A stretch of 49,494 bases of DNA, the filler included, from Bipalium vagum (taxonomy: Eukaryota), in NCBI GenBank assembly GCA_037834085.1. It is 3 parts of 3 records of this genome, joined end to end, with 100 filler letters (N's around TTAATTAATTAA, not from the genome) between each part and the next. Parts side by side here need not be neighbours in the genome. Positions count along the whole stretch, not along the records: positions 16,926 to 32,615 come from JBBMKC010151357.1; 2 more parts are not named here. The stretch is one strand, 5' to 3'. Below are positions 1-22,850 of the stretch, one piece after another (within the stretch, counting starts at the first letter, position 1; every line of letters begins with the position of its first letter). The translations under genes and the position numbers were made by a program. Below the pieces are notes generated by a model. That model did no database searches and was not told the DNA's origin. It saw only the letters and a list, made by a program, of their open reading frames with translations.

Positions 1-994
1 AAATGTTGGTTAATTTTAAAAAAGTAAATAATTTAATTTTAATAAAAGGTGAGGTCCAAGTTTGAAAAGTTTGTTTATTTAATCTGATTTAATGAAATAT
101 ATGATTATTATGGCTTCGACTTTAAATTCTGATTTACAAATGACTACACAAGAATATAACTTGGCGGCATGAACACTGACAGACTCGATCACAGACAGAA
201 TAGCTCCTGATCTACTAAGAAAAGGAGACGATGTGGGGTGTTTTATAAAAAGATATCAAAGATACTTTGACATTAAGGAGACCCCAATAAAGAAAAGAGA
301 AACAGCGATTTAATCGCTATTACATGAAGATCTATGGGAGGCCTACGAAGAAACATTTGGGAAGGCAAGCGGATTTGAAGCTAGAATCAGTCTATTGTTC
401 GAGATTGTTCAGTGTGATGACTAGGAAAATTTTGAATAAGTTTAAAGACGTGGAGGTAGTAAGAAGTAATGACAGATTAAGGTGTGCGAACAATAGCCAA
501 TTGGAAATAGTGGGAAAATGCTCGATTTTGGTGAGGGTAGCAAATGAGTCAAAGCTGGTGAACTTTACAGTAGTAGAGGAAGTCACACAGGATTTAATCG
601 GCGGAATAAATCTCCAGAAGGTATTCGAATTTAGATTGGTTAAAGAGAATTTCGAGCAGATCAAAACTGATGAAAAGGAAAGAGAAGAATCATATATGTG
701 TAATATAAGGAGTGATTCGAATAATTAGTTTATTTGAATTTTTTTTAAAACAGGACCTCACGCCATGATTAGCAATTATTAAATGTTTTTAACTTAAAGT
801 TTTTAAAAATTATGTTACGTTTTTAAATTTTTAAATAAATGTTGGTTAATTTTAAAAAAGTAAATAATTTAATTTTAATAAAAGGTGAGGTCCAAGTTTG
901 AAAAGTTTGTTTGGTTAATCGGATTTAATAAAAGATATCATTATGGCTTCGACTTTGAATTCTGATTTACAAATGACCACACAAGAATATAACT
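1..994 (+). mobile_element. Internally deleted Ty3/gypsy-type LTR retrotransposon (5' LTR 1-161 cut by window edge, PBS at 162, gag/protease remnant, 3' LTR ~699-994)
   Basis: Bases 1-161 repeat directly at 837-994. TGGCGGCA (PBS-like) follows the first LTR at 162. ORF 324-728 contains a retropepsin C-terminal half (LRCANNSQLEIVGKCSI...FTVV...DLIGGINL). RT and integrase are absent. Confidence 0.85.
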
Positions 995-3230
995 GAAAAT
1001 AGCTTTTTCATTTCAAAATTCGATAAGTCACTATAAAAAAAATATTTAATCAAAATATGCATAATTGCTATCTACAACACTTTGCCTAAGTCCTATGAGT
1101 TTCTTTATCTCGTTTCTGAAAAAGTCCGAGTCACGGGATTCAATAAAAGACGCGTAGGTATGTTGAAAATCATTCTGATTTTTGAACTGATGTATTTTTC
1201 TTTAACTTATATTCTTAAATGAAGTAAGTTCTAATTTTCGTCCTTTTCATTGTCCTTTAAATAGAGTTTTATATTATTAAAACAAACCTAAAATAACAAA
1301 ATGAAGTTTTAAATTAATAGAGACTTACCTGTCTTATTATTATTTATCAATAAATATAAAAATATCAGTCGATATTTTAAAATATTTTTACTTTAAAATT
1401 AACATATGAAAAAGCGACAATACTTTTAACTCAAGCTAACAAATATATTTTTTAATTTTACAGAGTGAATGGAAATATGATTTTCCGAGATGCTATTCTT
1501 CATTTTTATAAATCGCTACAGCATGCAGCCTCTAACTCATCTGTCAGTGAGATCATCGGGGCCGTGGCTCTACAGTTAAATGCCTGTTTAGATTGCGGAC
1601 AAAAAAAAATGATGTACGCCAGTTTTAGATTATGACTGTCCTATCCACAATAGTTAAAATAACATCTTTGATTTAAAAAACACCAATTGAAATATTATTA
1701 TCAATCTTTTTTTATTTCCTTCTTACTTTGTTGATTACACAACAAAAAATTGTAACTGGTTATATGCAAAAATATCACTATGAAGATCATACATACCAAA
1801 AAAGTGAAGATTGTCTATTGCTTGTGCATCTTGACTGAGAGTAACTATTTTGGAGTAATTCGAAGTAACTTAAATTCACGGACACACATCGAAAGTAAAA
1901 ACAGGTGTCTATTTGGTTTTTAAATTTAAAAACACTAAAAATAGTCTTAGCACCTTTGAAACACAATTACACAGTAAATATCTGTAAAAATCAGACATTT
2001 ATGCTTCAAAAAATCTAAAAATTGTTTTACAAAAATTCAGAAATATTTTAAGAGCTTAATAAAACATGATCACTTTTTTGTTATAATATAAATCCAATGG
2101 ATACAAAAAAATTATAAATAAAATTTAATTTGGGGAAAATTTGATAATGAATGTCGACAATTTTGTTTTTTGGTTATCAAAAGCAGTACTAATTATAAAT
2201 TTGAAAAATATTTTTTCTGATATTTAAAAATTACAAATATTATGAACAATGTACAAAAGACTTGTTTAAAAAGAGATTTAATTAAATTATTTTTTAACTA
2301 AATTTATATATATAATATATATTAAAATATGCAATTGTTTTAATAATTTATTTAATAATTTTTAAAACAATTCAAAATCAAACTAATAATAATGTTTTTC
2401 TAAATTTAATTAATCATGTAAATAATTAATAAACAAACATAATATTCGATATTATTTATTTATTCAATATTGGCATAAAATTATAATTCGCAGGAGTTAT
2501 CTAAAATTAACAGTTAAAAACCATTATTTAGAAATGTTAACAAAAGTACCCAAATGTTTACTTGTTATTGCAATTTTGATTTTTTTATTTTTTCATCTCA
2601 ATTTTGTACTGCAATTGATTAGTTAAATTCAAGAAAAAAATTGTCAAATATTTTTAATTTGCTAAATTTATTAATAAATTATTTTAATTAACAAATCTTA
2701 ATAAATTAAAAAACTGAAAATGGAGGTAAGAGATTTAATTTTTATAAGAGACTGCCGGTAGCCCCGACTCATTTTGAAGAGAATTCGTTCTGATTATAAC
2801 AGTTTATCATACGTTGAACTTTACAACCCCTCATAGTTAAAATTTTAGGACAAAGTAAATTGCACAATATCATTCATTAAAAATATTCAAATCACATTAA
2901 AAATATTGATGAGATTGCAAGCTTTAAACTCACCTCACTATTTTCTATAGTCTATTTTTTAATATAAAAATTAGAAACACAAGACTGGTCGATTTCAATG
3001 AAGTATTAACACAGGAAATCAATATCTCTGATATATTTTGTTACTTAATTCCATTTAATTTTTGGTTTTTTATTATCATTCAAAATAATTTTTTTGCTTT
3101 TAAGAAACTCGATACATCAACTGTTGGATATCGATTGTTTTTATATGTATTATGATGTATGAGATCAAAAATTCATAAAAATATATAGTAATCAAAAAAG
3201 AAAACATGTATATATTTAGTAAATTTATTA

Positions 3231-3527
3231 TACAAACAAACTAATGTTGCCTTTATAAATAATTAGAAGCCCATGTAATAAGAAAAACTTTTAATAACAA
3301 ATTCTAACCCCTCAGGTACTCAAAATTACATCCATCAGCGTTAACACACTCTTCTAACCGTGCACGAACACACATGCACACTCTAGAACAAAAATTTTTA
3401 TCAGCATCAATTTCTTGACAAGCATCCAAAATGAACTGAATCACATCTCAAATGCTCTCTTAGATGTTCACTATTTTCTGTCTTTCAGTATTGTTTCAAT
3501 ATTTATGTAACATTAGTTTGTTTGTAT
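3231..3527 (-). mobile_element. Tc1/mariner-derived MITE carrying a transposase C-terminus
   Basis: 24-bp inverted repeat ATTATACAAACAAACTAATGTT(G/A)C at 3227-3250 and 3507-3530 with TA ends. The minus strand reads ...CVRARLEECVNADGCNFEYLRG*, a typical transposase tail. Confidence 0.75.
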
Positions 3528-4240
3528 AATACACGTGGTAAATATTATATGTAAGTGGTTTCTCTTTTTTTCATAACTGTTTACTTACTTTTGCACTCTT
3601 CTGTATATTGTCTAATGGGTTATCCAACAAATTTTTACTAATTTGAAAGTACTTGCGAATCTTGATATGAAGTCATTCGTGGAACTCTATCTTTTGTCAA
3701 GATGTTGAAGGTGTCAATAAATTGGCTTATTCGAACTAATAATGGATTTAGATATATCTGAATATAAACAATTCAGTTGATTATCGTCTTTGACAACCGA
3801 AGGTCTTCGAAAACCTTGTCCACATTGAAGGCGGGTGTCATCGGAATTGAATTTCGAAAATCAGCGCCTTGTTGTTCTCCAATTGAGCGCATCTGAACCT
3901 TCAACTTCTACTATTAATCTGTTGTATTCATCGACTTATATCTGTCTTTTCTAATAATGGAGAACTATACGACTTTCATATTTTTTAGTTATTTTAGTTC
4001 AGGGCTAAAATGATTATTAAAACAAATTAATATAATTAAAGAATGGTTCAAGGATAATTCGCTCAGTTTTAATGGGAAAAAGTCAGCTTTGAAAACCCTA
4101 GGGTATGCCTAGAATAGTTCAGACTTTAATTAATAAAGAACCATGTCGAAAATCACAAGAAACTGAAATGATAATTTTTATATGTTGGTAAAATCAGAAA
4201 GATACAGAAATAAAAATCGTCTCGAATTATAGTGAGCACT

Positions 4241-4653
4241 CGGGTCATCTTTTTTTGCAAAGATCATATTTTTTTGCCGATCATAATGCAAAAATGAATA
4301 CAAGACTGTGGCTCGTCAAAAGTCTACCATAATGAGTGATGAATGGAGAGTCTATTCTTCGTTGAATTTTCATTTTGGGCAGAACTGAAACTGAAGATCA
4401 AGTGAATGAAAGGAGTGCATGGGATTGTTCTCATTTCATATTTATCAGAATATATGTAGAGGCAGAACGTCCAGAAAGAAAATTTACATGCAATATTTAT
4501 TTTGTTAAAAAAATAAAACAAATTTTATACCTTATTTTTAATTTATTAATCTTGTTAAAACTTATAAAAATTATGGGGGAGAAATAAATGTGATGCAAAG
4601 TTATGGGTGATAAAAAATATGGTTCGCACATGGGTGAAAAAAAAGATGACCCG
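4241..4653. mobile_element. MITE with CGGGTCATCTTTTTTT termini (Mutator-like)
   Basis: CGGGTCATCTTTTTTT at 4241 and its reverse complement AAAAAAAGATGACCCG ending at 4653, with related subterminal repeats. No TSD recognised. Confidence 0.55.
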
Positions 4654-6861
4654 AAAATTTTGCTCTATTAACATTTACAATTGCCATAGCTTATGTTGTG
4701 ATTGACACAGATCTCATCGATTAGCAACTGTGTTTCATTGTCTCGAACTTTTCGATTGACATGAACGAAGTTTATCATGGACACTGAAATCATCCATCTT
4801 GTAATCTATAATTTAAACCATTCTCTTCATGGTTTATCTCGGATAAATTTCTGTACAATCTTCCATGAGCATTCGATGAATTCTTTCAAACCGAAGCAAG
4901 GCATTAACATTTTTGGGAAAAGTTGTTGCGGTTAAATAATAATAAAATTAATAGTAACTGAGATAAATTGTTACAATTCCAAACGTTTAATAGCAAGATA
5001 TTATTAAAATATTTCCAAACTCAGAATTAAATGGTAAATGGAAGTTTTCATATATCAAAGAAATAATCAATGATTAATTGACATAAAAACGGACCGAATT
5101 AATTCAAACCTAATTATTCATTAACTTCTTATTTTATCACCTTACACTTCTAAATTTCAAAGATTTATCTTAGAGTATGATGTCATATTACATAGACTCA
5201 ACAGAAAAAGAACAGCCTACGTATATTACTGAAAATAAAAGTCAGAAATAAAAAACTTTTAATAAAAAATATTTTTATTTACTAATTGCTAATAATATAT
5301 TTATCATCATATATTTTATTCACTAAATTTCTCAAAGCATTACAAGCGAGTTATTTGAGTTTAGAAAGTAAATTAGGTAATATATTAATGTTATTCACAA
5401 TTTTAAGTTAAACCAATATGTATTTAAATAATTTTATTCTTTATTATTAAAAATTAAATAATATGATAAATTAAAAATTGATCCTGTCTATGAGGCACTA
5501 AGAAAATAAATCAAATTCACAAAATATGGATTTTTCAAACTGAATCAAAAATTTTTTCAAAATTCTAAAATTCACTTCGCTTTATTTTTAGAATAAGTAA
5601 TATATATAAATAAAATAAATTATTTAGCTGCAACACATTGATAATAAGAAATTATCAGCCTATGTATTGAAAGACGGGGAAGACACTGGAATGAAAAAAA
5701 TATGGAAAAAGGCAGTATTTTCTTTGAAGCGGGACAAAGTAATAATATTTTAAAAAATATTTTGTTCTTTTATTTCAAATAGGGAAACAAAAGTCAGAGT
5801 ATTTTGAAAAATATAAAAAAAGAATCTTTCAGACCTTCCAGTAGTTTACTCCAAACCAACTGCCATCACGACGATTCAAGTAATTATATTATTTAATTAT
5901 TTTAATTTTATTTTGAAGACATAAATATACAATTTTATTTATCTATTTAGTTTTTTTACAGAAAATTTTATTTTCGTTATATATATAACAAATATAATAT
6001 ATAATAATATATATAACAAATATTTTTATTAATTATGACTGGCTAATTTTTATATTTTTTGTATTTAATTTTTTTACGTTATTTATTCAAATATATTTTC
6101 ACAGATAGATATCAAAAGAAATGAAAAAATATTTTAATATTAAAAAATTGATCATTTTTAGTAGTGTCAAACCATCCAAACAAGACCAACATTGGAGCTA
6201 AACCTTAAAAATCATATTTTATCAATTTTTTCTATTTTTGTATTTTTTGCAATTTGTGTAATTTTAAATTAATTTTTGTATGTTTTAAATTTTTTACACT
6301 TTTATAATTTTTAATATAAGTAAAAGAGAAAAATGTAAGAAAATACAAATGAATTTGGAGACATGTTTTTATTAAACAATGTTTTTTTTATGGTAAAACT
6401 TGAGAAAATACGTAAGTTTTTAAGAAACAGAGAAGATTTTAAAATTATTTCAGATAATGAAAGGTTTAAAAGGCTTCAAGGTGTCTACGACTATTTCGCA
6501 AATTATTTTTTGAAATTTGTCAATTGTAACCGCAAACAACTGGTATTTTTTATTATTGATCTTGAGAAGTCTTTCATTAACCACAAATACCATATGTATA
6601 GTATTTAAGAGCATAGCATTTTGTGGTCTTCGAAAATCGAATCTCTTATTACTGAAATTGTTGATCTTCGACGTTTTTGGCCATTGCTTCTTCTCTTCTA
6701 CTTTGACTTTTTCGTAGTTGCAGTAGTTTTTAGCATAAGTAACAATGTTCTTTCATAAAGAATATTCTATTAATTATTAAAAATTCTATGATTATTTTTT
6801 CATCAAAAAAGACATCTTTTAATTGAAATATTGTTGGAATAATCTGAAATATATTATATTA

Positions 6862-7889
6862 CTGATGGTCATCCGAAAACCGGGAAATTTCAAAAAAAAT
6901 TATATTTATAACAAATATACACGAATTTCATAAATGTTCAAAATGGCTTCCTTGTGCATCATGACATCGTCCTAACCATGGGATCCAAGCTTTCGTTGCC
7001 GTTCGAAGTAATATATTTCGTCACAATAGATATTGTGATTTACCGTTTTCCTTTTCCTTCTGTAACAAGGGAGATGTTCTTGTTCTGAAGCAAAGCCTTT
7101 AATAAATCTAAGTTCTGTTTTTCCATAGAAGGACACTGCACCCTAACAAGATACAGAGGGTTGCACTTTGTCATATTCAATCAGTAGATCTTCGTTGAGT
7201 ATATCAGTTCTCACGGAAAATTCTATCATTCTGTTGGTTTAAAGGATGCCTCAATGAAGACTTTACTTCGTCTGAGAACCACACTTTCTTCTAAGCATCC
7301 ATTTGTCCACAACGATTTGCCAGTGCCCGGGACTTATTCATACGCATTATTTTATGGATTGCGGAAATTGCACTTTACTCTTCTATAGCACGTCAGCTTA
7401 TATTGTTTCATGATATTAAAAACGGATGTTTTTGATATTTGTAGTTACCGGGATATTTCTTGATGGCTCAAATGCTTCCTTTCAATATCTCCTACACGAA
7501 CTGGCGATAAAGCTAAAGCCTTCACATTTTCACGTTTCTCATCAGAAATTCGGTTTTGGGATCCTATTCTTTTTTATCCGGGCAATCTATAACGGATTTG
7601 CTTTAAAAGATGCAACGACATTATCAAATTGGTGTTTGGTAACCTTTGAACATTTTATTATTCCCATGTAGGATTTTCCGTCTTAAACAGAATTATTACT
7701 TGTCTTTTAAAATCTGATAATTGTTTTCCTTCTCGCATCAATTAGTTATCTAAAAAAATCAATAATTATGAAATGATAAATAATGAAATTGAATGTATAA
7801 TGACAATAATTAATTTTTTTGAAATTCATGTATATTTGTTGTAAATATATTTTTTTTTGAAATTTCCCGGTTTTCGGATGACCACCCTG
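6862..7889 (-). mobile_element. Decayed Tc1/mariner element (maT/rosa-like), internally deleted
   Basis: ~70-bp TIRs (..GGTCATCCGAAAACCGGGAAATTTCAAAAAAAA..) flanked by TA. Minus-strand remnants: MREGKQLSDFKRQVII, VWFSDE...LNQQNDRI and a C-terminal GSHFEHL*. Confidence 0.85.
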
Positions 7890-7908
7890 TATGAAACATA
7901 TTATTTTA

Positions 7909-8134
7909 TTGGGCTGTTCCCAAAGTCACTTCTATTTTTTATAACTATCTTTAAATCTTAATTTAAAGTACATAATTCATTTTAAAGGTTTGGATATTCA
8001 AATTGCCTGGCAGATAGCAGAAGGTCTTGGAACAGAAGGGACAATACATCATTGATTAAAAAATTTATTACTAATTAAACTTTTGATCTTACTTTTTACT
8101 AAAAAAATGCGAAGTGACTTTTTGAACAACCAAA
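7909..8134 (+). mobile_element. Mariner-derived MITE
   Basis: TA-flanked TIRs TTGGGCTGTTCCCAAAGTCACTTC / GAAGTGACTTTTTGAACAACCAAA. Internal LPGR*QKVLEQKGQYIID* matches the mariner transposase C-terminus. Confidence 0.8.
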
Positions 8135-9099
8135 TATTACTATCTGACATTAAGTACTAATAACATAAAATTTTATTATTGTTTGACCCTAATATGTTTT
8201 CAATCTAAATTGAATTTTTGTCAAATTAACTTGCAGAAATTGACAAATAATTTTATTTGTTTAAAAAAAAGACTATTTTAATTATTTTTAAAAAATGACA
8301 AGCGTGGCACATATATATCCAACGATATTCTCTTTTCTTTTTGATTTATTTATTCTTTATTCTCATAACAATTTAAAATCGAATCTTTTATTCCTTTTCC
8401 AAAATAAGAATCATAAAATTCCAGATCCTTGATATATTTTTTAGATTTTGGTTTTTATTATTATCTTTTTGCATTTAATTAATTTTTAAAAAATCTGTTT
8501 CTAAGTTTCCTTTGATTTTTAAACTGTTTCTGCAATCCCTACAGGTTCAGAAGGACATCATCGAGCTTTTATTTTAAAGATTCGACAAAATTGTTATACC
8601 CATCATGTTTAAAGAGATATTCGAGTTCGACTATTTAAAAATTTAAATAATTATAATGGTAAATATCTTTTAGGATTTTTTTAATCTAAATTAATTGAAA
8701 TAAAAATGAAAATGACTTTTTCAAAAACAAATTTAATCTAAAAAGTTATTATAAAAAACAATATTTATTTTAACAATATAAAATATTTTAATAAAATTAT
8801 AAAAGAAAATCAATATTTTAACAATATTAGAATGGTTGATTAATGTCTTCCGTGGAAGACTTTTCTCAAAATAGATTTTTATTTTTTATTTTTAAGTAAT
8901 AAAAAAATAATAATATTGTATAAATAAAAACAGAAATATAAAACTAAATTATTATTATTTTCTCAATGCTAGTAACAATAAAATCAATCATCAATTTTTA
9001 AAAGCTTTAGAATTTCATTTTTAAGAACTTTTTTTCTAAGCATTAAATAACAATTATTATTCAAAAATATTATTATTAAAATTGACCCAATGATTTTTC

Positions 9100-10130
9100 A
9101 CTAAACTAAAAAGAAAATTATTATGTATTATTTTATCTTCTTTTTTTCATTCATGAAATATCATTTTTGATTTATTAAAGGATTAGAATATTTTCATATA
9201 TATTTCCTGTAAAATAATTAGGATAAATAGGTGCAATTCCTTTTTAAACCTATTTTATCACGTGAATCTTTGGTGACATTTTCCATTTCTTAAAATTCTA
9301 CATTAAACTTTGATAAAATATTTTCATAAAATTTTCAATTTTTTTAATTCATTTCTTTGTAAATATTTTTGAAAAATCATATTTTTTCTTCTGAATTATA
9401 ATGAAAAAAGGACTTTGTAAATAATGTAATAATCTTAAAATATTATATCGCTTCAAATTATATTTTTCTACATCTTTGTGAACCAAACTTTTTCCACCAA
9501 TCATAAAATAATTCTTATACTTATTATACCACCCAGAAATATGATATTGAATTGTAGTTTCAAAATTTGAATTTTTATTTATGTTTATCTGCAACTAATA
9601 TTATTGTAACTTCATTTCCATCATTTCTCCTTGTAAATATCTCATTTTATTTATATAATTTTTAAATTTCACAAAATCCAAGACTCAAGAAATAATGATT
9701 TCCATTGTGTATCCCAACTACATAGGTTTACTTTTGAATTTATAATTTATATTTATCAGTAGTATCATAATATTTAAAAATTGGTTGGATTTTATTAATT
9801 AATATTTTTATAAAGGTTTATTTGAAATTGAGAAAGTCACTGAAAAGCTCTGTGAATTCCTTCATTTTTTTATTGATTCAATATTTTCATTAGGAGTATT
9901 TTTATTTAATAAATCTAAATTTTTTTGAGATCTGGATTTTTTATAGAACTTTTAAAATAGTTTTCTTAAAATTATAGAAAATAGAAATTATTTTATTCTT
10001 ATTCTTTTCCACTGATTCCACAACTTTGATTGAATAAATAAAATATTGCAAATTAAGAACATCAAAATTATCGATAGGATTACCAATATTTATTATTTTA
10101 TTTTCATTTATATTTATAAAATTTTTCATT
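9100..10130 (-). pseudogene. Decayed virus-like structural (fibre-like) gene
   Basis: NENKIINIGNPIDNFDVLNLQY resembles the KIxNLxxPxxxxDAxxxxY stalk motif of fibre/adhesin proteins. Downstream YFTGNIYENILI resembles a LamG/ConA-like strand. Many stops. Confidence 0.3.
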
Positions 10131-14004: not shown

Positions 14005-15770
14005 TTTATTTCAAATCAAAGATATGGTTGTCATTGTCACGGGGAAGTTTTTAAATGTTTGTCTCTGCTCTGGCTAAGTATCTTTTACAGATATTATGGG
14101 TATAAATGATCGTCCTTGCTGCACATTTTTCCATAATTGAATTAATTTCTGCTATTTTAAATCAAAATGCTCCGAGTGTTTGGTAGTTTGATGGGATCCA
14201 CGAACCCCTGGCTCCGATTATAAATGTTCTGATATCATAGTACCATGCTCTTCCGATTTCGGATTGAACTTCGTCCAACAAAGTCTGATATTTTTGCTTG
14301 TTTGCTTCGTCATTGCCCTTGATAGAAATCTTTGATTCAAAGAGGATCTTGACGTCTATTATTAGGTATATTTTAAGCCTCTTATTCACTAATTGTATAT
14401 CAGGAATTAAGTTTTTTCCTGAAAAAATTCCTTTCTTTTCAATGTGCATTTCCCATTCCTTTTTAAGTGTGGACAACAAATCAACTAAGATATTGTGCAC
14501 ATCATTGCTTCTTTTTCGTACCATAGGCATTATGTAGATACAGCTGCAAAAGGAATGTGAGGAAGTTTCTTCTTTTCAATAGCAATTTCTATAGTTGCCG
14601 GCTTTATTCAATTTTTTATTTGTTGGTAAATCATTAGTCAGATACTTTTGAATAAAGTACCATTCATCTGTACTGCACAGGTGCCCGCTCATCAGTTTTT
14701 TGTTTAGGCGACCAGTTAGGACAATTGTTTTTGCTAGGATTTCAGCGCTGCACAAGTTAACCCAATTCTCAAACATCTTTTCCCAGATTTCCTCATGTAA
14801 GAACAGACATAGAAGGTGAGCTGCGAATTTGTCAAAGATTGTGATTTTTTTCCAGCTTTGATGATTGTATTGATTTCGCTGTTGTTGTTCAGTTGAAAGG
14901 CTATATTGATATCGTCACTGATTCATAGGTATGATGAGGGTTTCGCTCAATTTTAAACCCCCTATCTATATCCAAGTATCTGTACCATTCACCATCCTTA
15001 GTATTGGGTAAAGGGCTGCCGTTGATGGTTATCTGTCCGATTTTCTTCTTAGAGAGATTTAAGAACGCGCATTTAGAAGCGTTTAATGTCATACCTGACC
15101 ACTGGATAACATTAATCACATCAGTCACCATGTTTTGCAAATCTCCAATTTTGTTGGCAACGACGGCTAAGTCATCAGCGTAAGAAAGTACTGCAAATTC
15201 CAACTGAGGGAATTTTCTATAGTTTTCTATCAAAACCATATTTATCGTTATATTAAACTATAACATAGATAATGGTCAGCCCTGCCTTATCCTCCTCTTC
15301 ACTTCTATAGGGTCTGTAGAAATGGTCTCGCAGAAAACTTTGGTTGGGCAATTTTGATATAAGTCTTCGATTATTTGTCGTGCATTCTCACCAACTCTGT
15401 GTCTTTCTAATATGTCTAATATAACTCTGACCGGCACACTTCCGAATGCATCTGCAATATCAATGAAACAAATAAAAAGATCCTCTTTCTTTAATTTAAA
15501 TTCCTCGATTTTTAGAGCAGCGTGAAGTTTTGTTCGGAACAGTCTTCAAAGTGCCCTAATGATTTTTGATTTTTGTGCATCAGCTTCTCTTCCAAAACCC
15601 AATCCTCTAACTGTTTGCAAATAATTGGTGTATAGAGCTTGTAGTTCGTATTTAGAAGGACAATCGGATACCAAGCATTGAATTTTGAGTAATCGTCTTT
15701 GTTCAAGTCTGCCCATGTTATGATCAATGCACAATGTTCTTGATTCCTAGTAGGAGAAATTAACAAAGTA
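14005..15770 (-). mobile_element. 5'-truncated, decayed RLE-type non-LTR retrotransposon (R2 group, NeSL/Utopia-like)
   Basis: RT motifs FIDIADAFGSV, IRQG*PLS and LSYADDL. C-terminal zinc-knuckle remnant, PDIQLV...IIDVK endonuclease motif and IGARGSWIPSN. Confidence 0.9.
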
Positions 15771-16825
15771 CTGAGAAAAGCTTTAATATAGAATTTGAAA
15801 CGATAAACTTCCCTTTGTCCCGTTTATGATGTATCACATGAGATTTTTAAAGCACACAATTTCAAAGCGACAATACTTTTCCCTCAACCTATTATTTTGT
15901 ACTTTTTAGTTGAAATAGGATATTTGAAAAACTTTTAAGTTTCTATGGTTGTTGGAAAACGAGTTTTTACTCAAAATCACAATTTAGTGATAATAAGAAA
16001 AACTACAGAGTTTTATCATTTAAAACTGGGTACCTGTCAATACTTTTCTTGGAAAATAGGAAGATGGTTTGCCAGATTTTTTTATGCTGATACGATAGTG
16101 TATCTAGTCTTGACTGCATCGCATATCACTGCTCTTTCTTTAAAAAGATGAGATTAAAAAAGTAAAGAAAACAATGGATTCTTTATTAAAACCAGTAAAA
16201 TATTCGTTAAAGCAATGAATAGAATATTCATAAAAATGGTTTTGTTACCATTTTCCTCTATCGAAATATGTAATTTTTAGCTCTATAACTTGTTCATCAA
16301 ATCTATATTACTCAGAAAATGTATCCCTTGTTGAATCTAAATTACTCCTATAAATAATCAAATAAATAATAAAAACATTAAGATAAAATATCTGAATAAT
16401 GAACGGAAAAGTTATTTATTCTTCATTATTTTAATAATAAATATTACGATAAATAAAAAAATATATTTAGATTCTCCGAGTCAAAACAGTGTAGAAACCT
16501 TCTGAGTATTAAGTTACCTCTTAATTATGAAATGAAATAAAATTCTAATTCTAGTATATCACTTTCTTTAATTTATAACATGTACGTAGATTTCACAAAT
16601 AATAATCTGCAGAGTATAAATTCTCATTTATTTTTTGAAGAATAATTATATTTTTAATACATAAAATTATTATAAAAAGTCAATCAACCGAAAGTTACTT
16701 TGATAAAGAGATTTCAATGATCAAACGGCTAAATATTTCTTAAACAGCTCATTTCTTTTGGTAGCTCCCGTGAGAAGTATGTAATGCAAATTCACTTTAG
16801 TTAATAATATTTTTCTCAATCTTTT

Positions 16826-16925
16826 NNNNNNNNNNNNNNNNNNNNNNNNNNNNNNNNNNNNNNNNNNNNTTAATTAATTAANNNNNNNNNNNNNNNNNNN
16901 NNNNNNNNNNNNNNNNNNNNNNNNN
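16826..16925. other. Assembly gap with TTAATTAATTAA linker (16870-16881)
   Basis: 100-nt block of N surrounding a six-frame stop linker. Confidence 0.97.
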
Positions 16926-16949
16926 ATAGTTTAGAAATTTTTTAATTTA

Positions 16950-18100
16950 TTAACAATTATTTAGAATTTTAGGGTGCTTTTTACTTTTTTCCATGAGTAT
17001 ATATATATGACCCCCAAGAGTACTACATCTCTTTCTCTAAATCTAATGAAAACTGAAATTATAATATTATAATTTAATGAATAAATTGAATTTAGGCAGA
17101 CAAAATATGACCTTAAAATATCAGGCACCTGGTTTATTTATTAACCTCTAAATTCTTTTACATAATATGAGTATATTCTATTATTTATATCTTTTGCAAA
17201 TGTACAGGATTTATAGGATTTAAACCGATAATATGAAATATTAACTTAAATTCTTAAGCTTTTTATATTATCTTGAATAAAAAAACTTTTATTTTCTTAA
17301 AAATCACATTATTTTTCTCTAAAAGCAATAAATATATAAAATAGTTTATTATGAATATTAAATAATTGTAAATTTGACCTGTTCCTTCTGTTAAATTTCT
17401 TTCTTCACGATGTCAATAAAAAATTAATATATTTATAGATTTCTCATTTTCAATTATTTTTAATTCAGTATCTGGATTTACGGTTAATTCTGCAATAAAC
17501 AATTTTAAATCTACCAATTTTAATTTAACATCTCCCATTGTTCCAAAAAATATTTCTTTATTCATATCAAATTTTATTGTAAATTTAACTTCTCCCTGTA
17601 TGTTATAAAAAATTATATTAAACAATTATAAAAATCCAAATATTAATTTTAATGAAAACTCTCATACAAATATATTTTGAGAATATAACAGTTTTCTAGT
17701 TTTAGATCCCTTATTATATTTATTTAATCATGTTTAATTTTGTCTGGTATTCGACCAAATATTTCTCCTTCATTATTTTTCAAATAATACATATTTTATC
17801 AGAGAATGTGAAGTTTCTAATTTTTCTGTTGCTTAAACTTTGTTGAACCTAATTTTAAATTGTGTTTGAAAAAAAAGGCTTTGTAAAGAAATATTTTCTT
17901 TTGGTGTCATATTCTTTATTTTTATTTCGAAAACTAATAAATCTTAAGCATTTAACGTTTGTAATAAAGAGAAAGTTAAATTTCCATTTTTATTTTAATT
18001 CGTTGCCGTTGTTAGCTTTAAAGAAACCGTTGTATGATTGCACTTTTTTTGTTTTCAAATCTTAAAAAAAATTTTTAACAACAATTTTAAATTATTTAAT
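16950..18100 (-). pseudogene. Decayed Maverick/Polinton (adintovirus)-type major capsid protein gene
   Basis: Minus-strand fragments NGFFKANNGNEL, NKGSKTRK...FSLKLIFGF and GEVKFTIK...KLKLVDLKLFIAELTVNPDTELKII resemble conserved blocks of Maverick double-jelly-roll capsids. Many stops. Confidence 0.55.
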
Positions 18101-18679
18101 AAAATAAATTAGTATAATATCTTTTAAAAGGTAGATTTTAGTATTTTTAAATCTTCAAAATTAATAAAAAAATATTTATATTTTCCTTCATGTGATAATT
18201 TTATAAAATAGCAAAATAATCTATTTCTATAAAATAATTTATAATCAATTCAATTTATTTTATTAAAATATTTTAATATTTTAAACTTGTTCGAGGTGAA
18301 TTATAAAACTAATTTTTCATTATTAAAATCTAATAATTCAATTTAATCAACTATTTAAAATGTAATCTATTTTTATATTTATTAAATGAAATAAAAAATT
18401 AACGAACGGAAACAGAGGTTTTGGTTAACGAGCTTAATAAACCACTTAATTTAAGTTTATTTTAGTTAAATTTATTTTAAAAAAGCACCTGAATATCCAC
18501 GATTGGTTCTATGGTTAAGTAATTTTAAGTTTATTTTTAATATTAAGTTTAATTTTTGGTTTAATTTAAGTTTATTTTAAAAAAAATAATTTTTGAATTG
18601 TGATTTTAAAATTGTGAAAACATGTTAGAGTGTTGAATTTGAATTTTAAATTTTTTATATTTTACAGAAAATAATCGAA

Positions 18680-19460
18680 GAATGCAGTTATTACTATTGT
18701 AAATGCCATTGAAACAGATATTAGAAATGACCAATTTGTAGGGTTTGATGTGATAAATAACTTAGGTTTTTTAATAATCTAAAAATTTCGAGAAGTCTTT
18801 CCATTAACTTTGTATATATTAAATTCAATAAATTTAATTATTATAGATATATTTATGTAAAAAATAAGTAATTAAATAATTAGTTTTAAATATAATTTTT
18901 AAAAAATATAATTTGTATACTGATAAAGGTGCTTTATTTGATGAATTAAAACAAGCGTCAATAGATCCTTAATATTCAAGTTTGGTGGTAATTACATTAA
19001 TTATTATTTTTACCACTACTGATTTGGCCTCGGATCAATAATGAATCATCTCCTTTTGGTCTGATATTAAGAAATGAGTCTAAAATTCTTGGAAATTAAG
19101 ATAATTCAGATCTTATCATATCTATTTGAATTTCTATTTCTAAAATTTAAATAAATCTCACAGAATTATAATTTGAACTATTTGTATCTAAGATCAATAT
19201 TTAGATTCTTGTTTTTGTGTTAATATGATAATAATATCAGTAAAATAAAATATCCATAATAAATCCTTAAATTGGTAAATTTTCCTATCGACATTTGATT
19301 TTGTGAAAGGCGTAATTTTGTAGATTATAATTACGATCTGATGATCAAATTTCATAATACTAAGTGAGTTCAATTACCACTGTGGTGTTTAAAGGTGAGG
19401 TGGAATATGTTATTGGGTCCATGATGAAATTCGAGGTGGACGATGGGACTGGTCATTGAA
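18680..19460 (-). pseudogene. Decayed superfamily-3 helicase gene (parvovirus NS1/papillomavirus E1-like)
   Basis: Walker A-like SLLIRGQISSGK (19029-19009), then FNSSNKAPLS, then motif C-like KKPKLFITSN (18769-18743) about 80 codons after Walker A. Walker B is not recognisable. Confidence 0.5.
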
Positions 19461-19670
19461 TTTCCCTTGATATTTACGTACCATTTTGACAGAAAGACGC
19501 ATAATTTGAAGCAAGAGAACAAAATTGAAAAGAAAAAAACTAGAACAAAAAATTGGAGTTAAAACGAGCGAAAAACAAGACTGTGAACCAAAAGAGAACA
19601 ATAATTAGAGTTAAGTGGAAGAGAACAAAACCGAGAAAAATTACAAAAAAGAACATACTCAGTGATATTA

Positions 19671-20901
19671 CAGGGTTTAACACACCACTTAGCTTTCCTA
19701 ACATTACATTTCGTTATTTAAAAATTTGATTTTATTTTTATAACATTAAATTTTGTAATTTTAATATTTTATTTAGTTTTTTAACTTAAGATTTTTCTAA
19801 CAAAAAACACCAATATTCTTAATTAAATTCAACAAAATCAATTTCAATCCATAATTGTCAGCTAAGAAAACACATTGCAATAAAATCCAGCACAGTCTTC
19901 AGTGGTTATGAAAAGAGACGAATAGTCAATAACCCTAAAAAGTTGCTCCCCATTTTGTGGCGGAAAGAGTAAGGTGGAAAGAATAATAGTTAAATATTTT
20001 CCAAATCAAATTTATCCCTAATTATTTTTAATTTATGGAAGGGAACATTGTCCATAATCACTAGGGCTCTAGCAATGTTTTGTGATTTTTTAATATACCC
20101 AACTAAATTATCTATGAAATCGGCAAATGTTGAGGTTCTGAAGGCTGTTGTCTGACATGAATATTTAACTATGTCATTTTTAGTCATCGAACAGCACACA
20201 GAAATATTTCTGGTTCTGATACCAGGTACTATATGAACTGCTGGTGTACCAGCTAATGGTCTTCTTTTTTGTTCTCATCAACACGTTGAATGCGACCTCT
20301 TCGACGAAGAATATATTGGATTCATCAATTTTGGAAAGATGGTCTAGAAATTTCACTGCATAATCGAATCCAGGGATATATTTTTCAAGGTACACGCGAA
20401 CGAATCAATATACCTGTGCACAGTTTGTTCAGATACTGTTATTTGATAATTATCAAAAAGGCGATTTTTCAATTCCTTAAGAATTCCAAAGTTTTCATTT
20501 ATACATTCTTGTATATATAATAAATTTTAAAATATTCCACATGGTCAGGAAACAAAGATTTCTTTGTCTTTCCACCCTTTAACCTCTTTTTATACCTATC
20601 TTCTTTTACATAAATTGATATAATAGTTCTTTATTTACAACCCAAAAGGTCTGTTATTTGTTTCCTGGAATGACCCCTTATAAAACTCTGTATAATATAT
20701 TTCCGTATTTCATTTGAAATTGATGCCATTCTTGTCTAAAATTAAAATAGAACTAAACTAAGAATAAATGTTAAAGTTACAAAATTTAATGTTAGGATAT
20801 CTAATTTAATTTTAAAATATACGAAATTTTGTGTTATAAAAAAAATTATAAATTTAGCATACTACAATTTAATTTTAAACTAAATGACGTGTTAACCCCT
20901 G
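19671..20901 (-). mobile_element. Decayed IS630/Tc1-type DNA transposon
   Basis: TA-flanked TIRs CAGGG(T/G)TTAACAC. Transposase remnants run from ATG 20729 (MASISNEIRKYII) and include IFFVEEVAFN and VIMDNVPFHK. Frameshifted. Confidence 0.88.
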
Positions 20902-21349
20902 TATTAAGTGATTTTTTTAGTGAATAAATTGATTCGAACGAACCTTTATTTTTCAATTTTGAGTCAGGATAAAATTTAGTTGGTTAATATTTATTTAAAT
21001 ATTGACATTATTTAAAAAATTTCAAGTTAGGGTTCTCCCTTTGATATTTTGAAGAATGTTATGGTTTTCTTAAACCATTTTATACATACAAAGAATATAA
21101 ATATTTTCAACTACATTTGTTTTTAAATTTTAAAGGCATTATTAACTTTTTAGTGAAAATTGATTTTTTTTATTATTAAAATTGTATATTGACAACTGAT
21201 TAAAATTAAATTTTCAAATATCTTTTAGAGGAACTCAATAAAATTAAATTAACCAGTGTCTATAGACAAGATTGTAAATTTAACAAATAACTTAAAAATC
21301 TCAGAAACTTATATTAAACATACAAAAAATTTCTAAACAAATAAAATTA

Positions 21350-22850
21350 TCTAAATTCAACACACATTTGCACATTATTTGCGTAGTTCAGATATCTTTT
21401 AATTCAGAATCTTTTCAAATTTAAATCGATTATTCTTAGATCATGGAACAAGATTGTTCATAAATCTTTTAACTGAAGACAAAAATGTCTTGTAAAATAT
21501 AACATATGATTGGAGATATTATGCATAAATTAATTACATTTCCGAGCACAGAGAATGTTTATCCATTTTCTTGAAAACAAATATTGATTCAACTGAAGAG
21601 AACTTGATTTTTTATTGAAAAATGAAAATAATTTTCATCGACTAAAATTTTTGGAACAAGTCGGTTAAAAATGGAATACATAATCAATCACTCAATAAAA
21701 ATGACCAGAATTTCTGAAAACCTAAATCAGATTTACATTACTGCACAGAAGACAAAACCATGGTTTATTTTTCACGAAGATAATATTTTGGTAGTACAAA
21801 TCACAAACTGTTGATCTCAAATCTATTTTTTCTTTAAAACCTTATCAAACCAATCCCTGTAAAGAAATCAAAAACCATATATAAAATGTTAATTATCCCT
21901 CCATCTGCAAAAAAATTAAAATAATTTACGTTGGTATGAGAATAACACCACTGCTCCACTTTTTCTGACAAAATATCACTGAAGCTGACGTGGAATTTCG
22001 TCGATACTTTTCTGTTAAAGAGCATTGAATTTGATATTCGGATGCTTTACTCGAAGTAGTCTAAAGTATTCGATGACTGATTTGAAAAATTATTTTTAAA
22101 TGGATTTTTTATTCAGCTTTTCATTCTTGTCTATTCATAATTTGAAATTATTTTTCTAAACAAATCAGTCAATGCAGAAATTTGAAAACTGGTCCTTGAG
22201 TATCAATATCTTCAAAAATAAAATATCGATTTATAAAAAAATATGTAATCATACTTAATACTTTTTATTTCACTTTTCTAACTCTACAGAGTGATTGATA
22301 AATATGTATACGAGCTTAAAACAAAAATAATCAACTAATTTTAAACCGAATTTATTAATCAAAACGTTTTTTGTACAAAAACTATGCAAATAAAAAATGC
22401 CTATCAACAAATTTAAGTAATAATATATTAAAATTAATCAGTTTGCATTCCTTGGACATCCATAGATTTCTGTAATATTGGCATTAAAGATCTGTAAACT
22501 TTCTGAAAAAGATCTACTGGAATCAAACTGATTTCTCCATAGGGTTTTCCAGACATTTATAAAATATTTATATTTTTCCAATGATTTATCTACAATGATA
22601 AATGAAAAGATTTATGTTCATTGACAAATTGATTAATTTTTATTTTTTTAAATGCGTATACATATTTATGAAAAACTCTATTATTGGGAATAATGAAATT
22701 TCTTAGACAAACCGAAATTCGCGCTAGAATATTAGCAAAAGCAAGCCTATCAAAAAGCACTAAATGGAATAAATTGATCAAATTCTTGATTGAAAAAAAA
22801 GATTTAGTTTATTCATCTGAATTTTTTTCATTTTCTCAGTGTATTATGCG
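21350..22850 (-). pseudogene. Decayed intron-containing KDZ-like transposase, copy B
   Basis: Exon-like blocks give KKWSSGVILI..DGGII, KILVDENYFHF and G*TFSVLG (compare EQxFSWL), collinear with copy A. Confidence 0.33.

Follow-up and report, generated by a model that had tools for sequence, protein, structure and literature searches.

Remnants of a Maverick-type capsid gene and a likely superfamily 3 helicase in Bipalium vagum: a possible fossil of one chimeric virus

Analysis of a 49,494-nucleotide stretch of DNA from the genome of Bipalium vagum (hereafter the window) identified a decayed major capsid gene of the Maverick/Polinton kind, located about 550-600 nt downstream of what is likely to be a helicase remnant on the same strand (Table 1). 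The single most likely reading of this locus, to which we give a probability of roughly 0.45, is that capsid and helicase remnant together are the fossil of one chimeric virus element. An earlier note on this DNA had proposed a chimeric Polinton-like virus using a helicase/Rep module. The capsid identity in that proposal stood and its helicase is likely; its HUH reading was not supported. All peptide strings quoted in support of it are present in the minus strand. The stretch is non-coding today and is flanked by a gap and transposons.

Table 1. Features of the locus, with positions counted along the window
Feature	Position	Strand	Remarks
N gap, read as an assembly gap	16826..16925		N runs around a 12-nt linker; sequence after the capsid gene cut off
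Major capsid gene of the double-jelly-roll kind, decayed, from a divergent branch of Mavericks/Polintons	16979..18100	-	phmmer relatives, PF21738, frame-shift-aware profile; ends set by eye
AT-rich spacer	18101..18660		15% GC, short tandem repeats; no gene or transposon recognised
Likely E1/CRESS-type superfamily 3 helicase remnant, three frames	18662..19140	-	Walker A and motif C; without Walker B
His-rich run	19397..19441	-	no better score than shuffles
Tc1/IS630-like DNA transposon, separate insertion	19673..20901	-	DDE_3, E-value 1.9e-7; inverted ends, TA on both sides

The capsid gene and its relatives

Judged from its sequence, the capsid gene is certainly a Maverick-type capsid fossil belonging to a divergent branch. 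A full HMMER search (phmmer) of 1.84 billion proteins identified twelve closer relatives (P0101-P0112) with 26-44% identity and a best E-value of 2e-11. Eleven of the twelve matched PF21738 with E-values up to 0.001, with eight at or above the curated cut-off, and the ten that were looked up each formed a cluster of one without a name, drawn from ENA assemblies and lying on contigs that measure 601-7375 nt. A profile of the near relatives scored 177 bits over positions 18054-17156, the profile-supported core of the gene, and no more than 24 elsewhere in the window. A Maverick-type capsid on the minus strand, as had been claimed, was thus borne out far beyond chance. Its peptide strings were located as NKGSKTRK (from 17715), SLKLIFGF (17655-17632) and KLVDLKLFIAELTVNP (17520-17473).

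Comparison with canonical Mavericks was performed using L001, found among viral contigs, whose capsid matches PF21738 with an E-value of 2.9e-47. This capsid gave a single match in the window using tblastn, at 17670-17281 within the capsid gene (E-value 1.9e-5), and a profile built from 93/94 of the L001 capsid relatives recovered the window capsid with an iE of 1e-6. The canonical capsid profile in a frame-shift-aware scan gave 46.5 bits, compared to 17.9 +/- 1.9 for 60 shuffles. A first frame-shift scan of the whole window with canonical profiles had made neither capsid nor helicase clear, its setting being too blunt. The frame of the capsid gene read through with X was found to have no match in Pfam, PDB or word-based homologue searches, scans of the broken pieces with Pfam and PHROGs gave nothing useful, and the capsid and its nearest relative had no loci in the viral and prokaryote collections.

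The gene was correctly described earlier as decayed. About nine stops and five frame changes were identified in 900 nt, and this copy is dead. Its last 180 nt scored within shuffles and are capsid-like by eye only.

The seven longest near relatives formed one branch (SH-aLRT 99) in a tree of 27 intact proteins obtained by a quick search only, a more careful search not having finished. One of the relatives, P0103, was 22-26% identical to 19 canonical Maverick capsids, and the window capsid was 27% identical to the best canonical capsid over 179 positions. Among 106 capsid frames from reference Maverick loci, none was scored higher by the near-relative profile. The six longest relatives that were looked up lie on contigs of 2.2-7.4 kb, which is compatible with a small genome, with canonical capsids being found on contigs of like size. 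It is improbable, but conceivable, that the twelve unnamed capsids represent a family of small viruses in which this capsid is paired with an E1/Rep-type helicase without PolB, the locus being a germ-line fossil of that family.

Helicase motifs upstream of the capsid gene

Upstream of the capsid gene, a Walker A motif (GQISSGK, 19029-19009) and a motif C (PKLFITSN, 18766-18743) were identified on the minus strand in different reading frames. They are separated by 266 nt, or 88.7 codons, compared to 84 in E1, with model spacings of 74-92 and a range of 73-92 for superfamily 3 (SF3) helicases. Taken together, the two motifs are likely to be the remnant of an SF3 helicase, one that resembles the E1/CRESS type more than it does D5 or the NS1 of densoviruses.

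Profiles were built from 76 E1, 17 densovirus NS1, 55 CRESS Rep, 73 D5-like and 14 Maverick ATPase sequences, with class membership confirmed by Pfam for examples (two E1, two NS1 and one each of CRESS-like, D5 and ATPase). A two-block test was then applied over 18150-19690, combining a Walker A block and a motif C block and comparing the score to those of 150 shuffles. Shuffles scoring as high numbered 0-1/150 for E1, 0-3/150 for a mixed E1 and NS1 profile and 1-7/150 for CRESS, with the E1, mixed SF3 and CRESS blocks all settling on the same pair of anchors. The densovirus NS1 class fitted poorly (22-43/150); of the NS1/E1-type helicase previously suggested, the E1 side, extended to CRESS, is the likelier. 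A D5-type primase-helicase, also named in the earlier note as a profile to compare, was rejected, as 73-75/150 shuffles scored as high and the anchors were missed (this profile consists mostly of phage-sized contigs, with eukaryotic PLV D5 partly covered). An A32 packaging ATPase, modelled as Walker A with a downstream block, was likewise rejected (108-128/150).

A loose pattern of the motif pair, written after the motifs had been seen, occurred once in the 49-kb window and in one of 300 shuffled windows. It fits 74/76 E1 and 37/55 CRESS sequences, and none of the 17 NS1, 73 D5 or 14 ATPase sequences. This sole pair in 49 kb is situated less than 1 kb from an independently proven viral gene and on the same strand. 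Profile comparison placed the two motif pieces collinearly on E1 residues 432-460 and 530-564 (E-values 0.02 and 0.0098), with the middle piece between them placed elsewhere (E-value 0.46). When the whole window was scanned using the mixed profile, the locus ranked first with a score of 27.6, against maxima of 23.8-27.0 in eight shuffles; using the E1-only profile it ranked fourth on the minus strand. Support for the helicase in the whole-window profile scan is marginal.

No acidic pair corresponding to Walker B was found about 40 residues past Walker A in any frame, an absence that may be due to loss by decay. The stretch between the motifs scored no better than shuffles with E1/SF3 profiles (375-476/500 as high), nor did the region upstream of Walker A (71-245/500), where the best E1 match was in register, yet equalled by 71-92/500 shuffles. 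The helicase pieces had no match in Pfam, PDB or homologue searches, single-frame profile searches gave nothing at the locus and a word-based search with the motif C piece returned no homologues. The exact motif C pattern occurred at ten loci among viral contigs, none with a Walker A in frame. The SF3 helicase of the earlier note therefore retains both motifs, their co-orientation, their spacing and their rarity in shuffled windows, and lacks a Walker B and a stand-alone profile match.

The weak likeness of the His-rich run to an HUH motif did not survive comparison with the amino-terminal, nuclease-side profiles of CRESS, NS1 and E1 (19-55/60 shuffles as high), and an HUH nuclease reading was rejected.

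As a separate observation, a 5-kb viral contig (L037:646-2487, minus strand) was found to carry a 614-residue frame in which a CRESS-type Rep is combined with the phage neck-protein domain PF22756 (E-value 5e-28), being either a fusion or an assembly chimera.

Gap, spacer and flanking elements

The reference set used to identify other Maverick genes comprised 82 Maverick loci with 942 frames, some being near-duplicates. A tblastn search of the 49-kb window with these frames, together with 14 gene profiles, identified the capsid only, with the next best iE being 0.011. The PolB profile (46 sequences) reached a best iE of 2.9 in the window. In 17/30 reference loci with enough sequence, the 1.5 kb following the capsid held PolB as the nearest recognised gene, and the gap, unmentioned in the earlier note, begins about 50 nt after the likely end of the capsid gene. 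A missing PolB would thus be expected in the gap; that none is visible was confirmed by profile, and this absence is uninformative. Best iE values for integrase, packaging ATPase, penton and protease were 0.28, 0.17, 0.045 and 4.0, obtained using canonical profiles only 22-26% like this capsid branch at a locus cut by gap and transposon. Penton, ATPase and protease are needed for a Polinton-type particle and none was seen, so the locus is a fragment.

Upstream of the capsid, one of two small conserved genes is present in 47/51 reference loci. Neither was found upstream here, and the upstream neighbour of this capsid differs from the canonical Maverick layout. An SF3 helicase was present in 0/82 reference loci. 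Eight Maverick gene profiles run against 18050-19690 on both strands gave scores within shuffles in 15 of 16 tests, with one plus-strand score at 0/40. A gene in 20 of the 82 reference loci is presumably a phospholipase of the Alpha class, as read from a motif.

The spacer contains a direct repeat of 33-35 nt (18446-18482 and 18561-18597, 115 nt apart, 80-85% alike) that, by its sequence, could be origin-like or mere low complexity. A sigma-70 scan of the spacer was at chance, the model not being relevant to a eukaryote, and no element end was seen inside it. Terminal inverted repeats or target-site duplications were not seen in 16926-21700 other than the ends of the Tc1-like element, with one end of the locus lying in the gap. 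The Tc1/IS630-like element, also unmentioned previously, bounds the region upstream, right before the His-rich run, and its DDE gene is broken. Several contigs from one sequencing run join 19584-19648 to 20912-20930 across this element, so that the flank has the look of a repeat of which other copies have empty sites.

The locus was matched in one sequencing run, which may come from the source sample, with no RNA run among the matches listed. Exact contigs cover 16978-18478, as an overlapping chain, and 18932-19728 at a depth of 14-24, like the flank; among the contigs listed none bridges 18478-18932, which proves nothing. Related contigs at 80% likeness gave a summed depth of 3200-6000 over the capsid core compared to 235-560 over the helicase motifs, a measure that is not copy number, that varies from 112 to 9100 among capsid bins themselves and that includes AT-rich noise. 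This uneven pile-up hints, weakly, that capsid and helicase differ in copy history. Summed contig depth over the stretch covered in this comparison peaked at 16926-17081 (30,808), which hints at a high-copy repeat starting from the edge of the gap.

The DNA of the window is eukaryotic and rich in AT. It contains a DDE transposon, a reverse-transcriptase element in decay and a split RINT1 gene (E-value 2.9e-32), a mix that suggests an invertebrate animal as host. Host genes are represented by the RINT1/TIP1 exons (34327-36326, minus strand) and a propeller-repeat frame (Hyd_WA, weak; 27138-27530, minus strand). A decayed non-LTR retroelement (14060-16100, minus strand; RVT_1, E-value 1.8e-9) is situated just left of the gap, and pieces like it seem to be present near 33200-34000. 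An inverted repeat of 87 nt (6848-6934 and 7816-7902, 86% complementary, 881 nt apart) is likely to be a small DNA transposon. A dispersed repeat of two to three copies with 86-95% identity (1-161, 740-995 and 28634-28934) adjoins a gag/protease-like frame (291-728) identified by eye and without a Pfam match. The gaps at 16826-16925 and 32616-32715 each consist of two 44-N runs around an identical 12-nt linker, an artefact that makes false repeats.

Origin of the locus and comparison with known viruses

If the favoured reading is correct, one insertion would have brought in the capsid gene and the E1-type helicase gene upstream of it as a piece of a single virus, with helicase, AT-rich spacer and capsid having been arranged in tandem. 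Rings of SF3 helicase unwind an origin on which host polymerases then act, and trimers of double-jelly-roll proteins build the facets of capsids. The DNA of such a virus would have been unwound by the E1-type helicase during replication and then packed in a double-jelly-roll shell, with the helicase standing in place of PolB or beside it, as in mavirus. The shared strand, a spacer without a recognised transposon or gene, the breakage of both genes in several frames and the absence here of the small genes found ahead of the capsid in 47/51 reference loci are the points in favour of one insertion.

Two other explanations were weighed against this. Only the capsid may be viral, left over from an ordinary Maverick with PolB; the remaining genes of that Maverick would then be hidden in the gap or have been deleted, and the motifs would be due to chance or to some other decayed gene. 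The missing Walker B, the failure of the held-out stretches against shuffles, the lack of database matches for the helicase pieces and the marginal whole-window score are as this explanation would have it, as is a gap at the very position where PolB comes first after the capsid in reference loci. Against it, a motif pair seen in one of 300 shuffled windows is here found beside a capsid on the same strand, and the E1 pair score was reached by almost no local shuffles (0-1/150); we consider it rather unlikely. Separate arrivals, in which both fossils are real and a piece of Maverick capsid entered a transposon-rich stretch independently of an E1/NS1-like element such as DENSOV_HM/PIVE, appear a little less likely again. 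The region is packed with insertions (the Tc1-like and non-LTR elements), helicase repeats for which no double-jelly-roll capsid is described exist (PMC3198968, section 8), the related contigs pile up unevenly (a weak point) and 18478-18932 is bridged by none of the contigs listed. Separate arrivals would nevertheless leave an element end to be expected where none was seen in the spacer, and would require two rare fossils to meet by chance within 600 nt in one orientation, as no other viral gene was found in the 49 kb. Given a helicase, it is fairly probable that the capsid and helicase genes came in together.

For a chimeric virus of this kind, precedents exist in the parts of the literature cited here. 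The earlier note took SF3 helicases to be alien to viruses with a Maverick capsid, a premise that no longer holds, as viruses combining a helicase with a Maverick capsid are already published, one with an E1-type Rep (bioRxiv 10.64898/2026.06.19.733378; PMC11071296). In group 2 Mavericks, pPolB is stated to be often swapped for SF1/SF3 helicases, mostly fused to polymerase/primase (bioRxiv 10.64898/2026.06.19.733378), whereas the window motifs show no D5 fit. Group 2 Maverick-Polintons, or Alpha adintoviruses (class Polintoviricetes), have the capsid family PF21738 in common with the window; the near relatives of the window capsid differ in forming their separate branch in the quick tree, as does the window in lacking detected PolB, integrase, ATPase, penton and protease genes.

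The clam adomavirus tegillarca5526 (AdintPa) is described as pairing a RepE1 with adintovirus virion genes (PMC11071296). Its Walker A and motif C are 86 residues apart, as counted by eye, compared to the 88.7 codons of the window, and it is a 13.4-kb circular genome with an ATPase, two pentons and a protease, whereas the window holds an integrated fragment. Adomaviruses of this type are recognised by a circular genome of 9-20 kb that carries an SF3 Rep, a penton and a Cah gene. Adintovirus virion modules are divided into Alpha and Beta classes, with a gasdermin-like gene being tied to the Beta (Terrapene) module (PMC8502044). Tegillarca5526 has such a gene, so that, on gene content rather than alignment, its capsid is likely to be of a class other than that of the window.

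CBEV_PLV1, an entomopoxvirus-associated PLV of an insect, is reported with a mavpol2-clade capsid and a D5-like SF3 helicase gene replacing PolB (PMC11296320), whereas the window motifs fit E1/CRESS and not D5. E1/NS1-like helicase sequences in or associated with invertebrate genomes are described as stand-alone repeats for DENSOV_HM of Hydra and PIVE/PEVE of planarians, section 8 of that source (PMC3198968) describing no double-jelly-roll capsid with them, unlike the window. An SF3 helicase is reported together with pPolB in mavirus (PMC11161782) and in bidnaviruses (PMC4061559), and a helicase does not therefore imply the loss of PolB. Their capsids differ from the Maverick double jelly roll of the window, being of the virophage type in mavirus and a parvovirus single jelly roll in bidnaviruses. 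Searches of open journals and the main texts of preprints listed no paper in which a host genome has an Alpha-like capsid next to an E1-type helicase.

Should the link between the two genes fail, the locus would be an ordinary Maverick capsid fossil, whose lasting value is as a pointer to a divergent capsid branch. If the link is true, a Polinton-capsid virus driven by an E1-type Rep would be known from a second, independent case, a capsid branch without named members would gain a host genome, and the locus would bear on how modules are exchanged between the small viruses that rely on a Rep and the midsize ones with a double-jelly-roll capsid.
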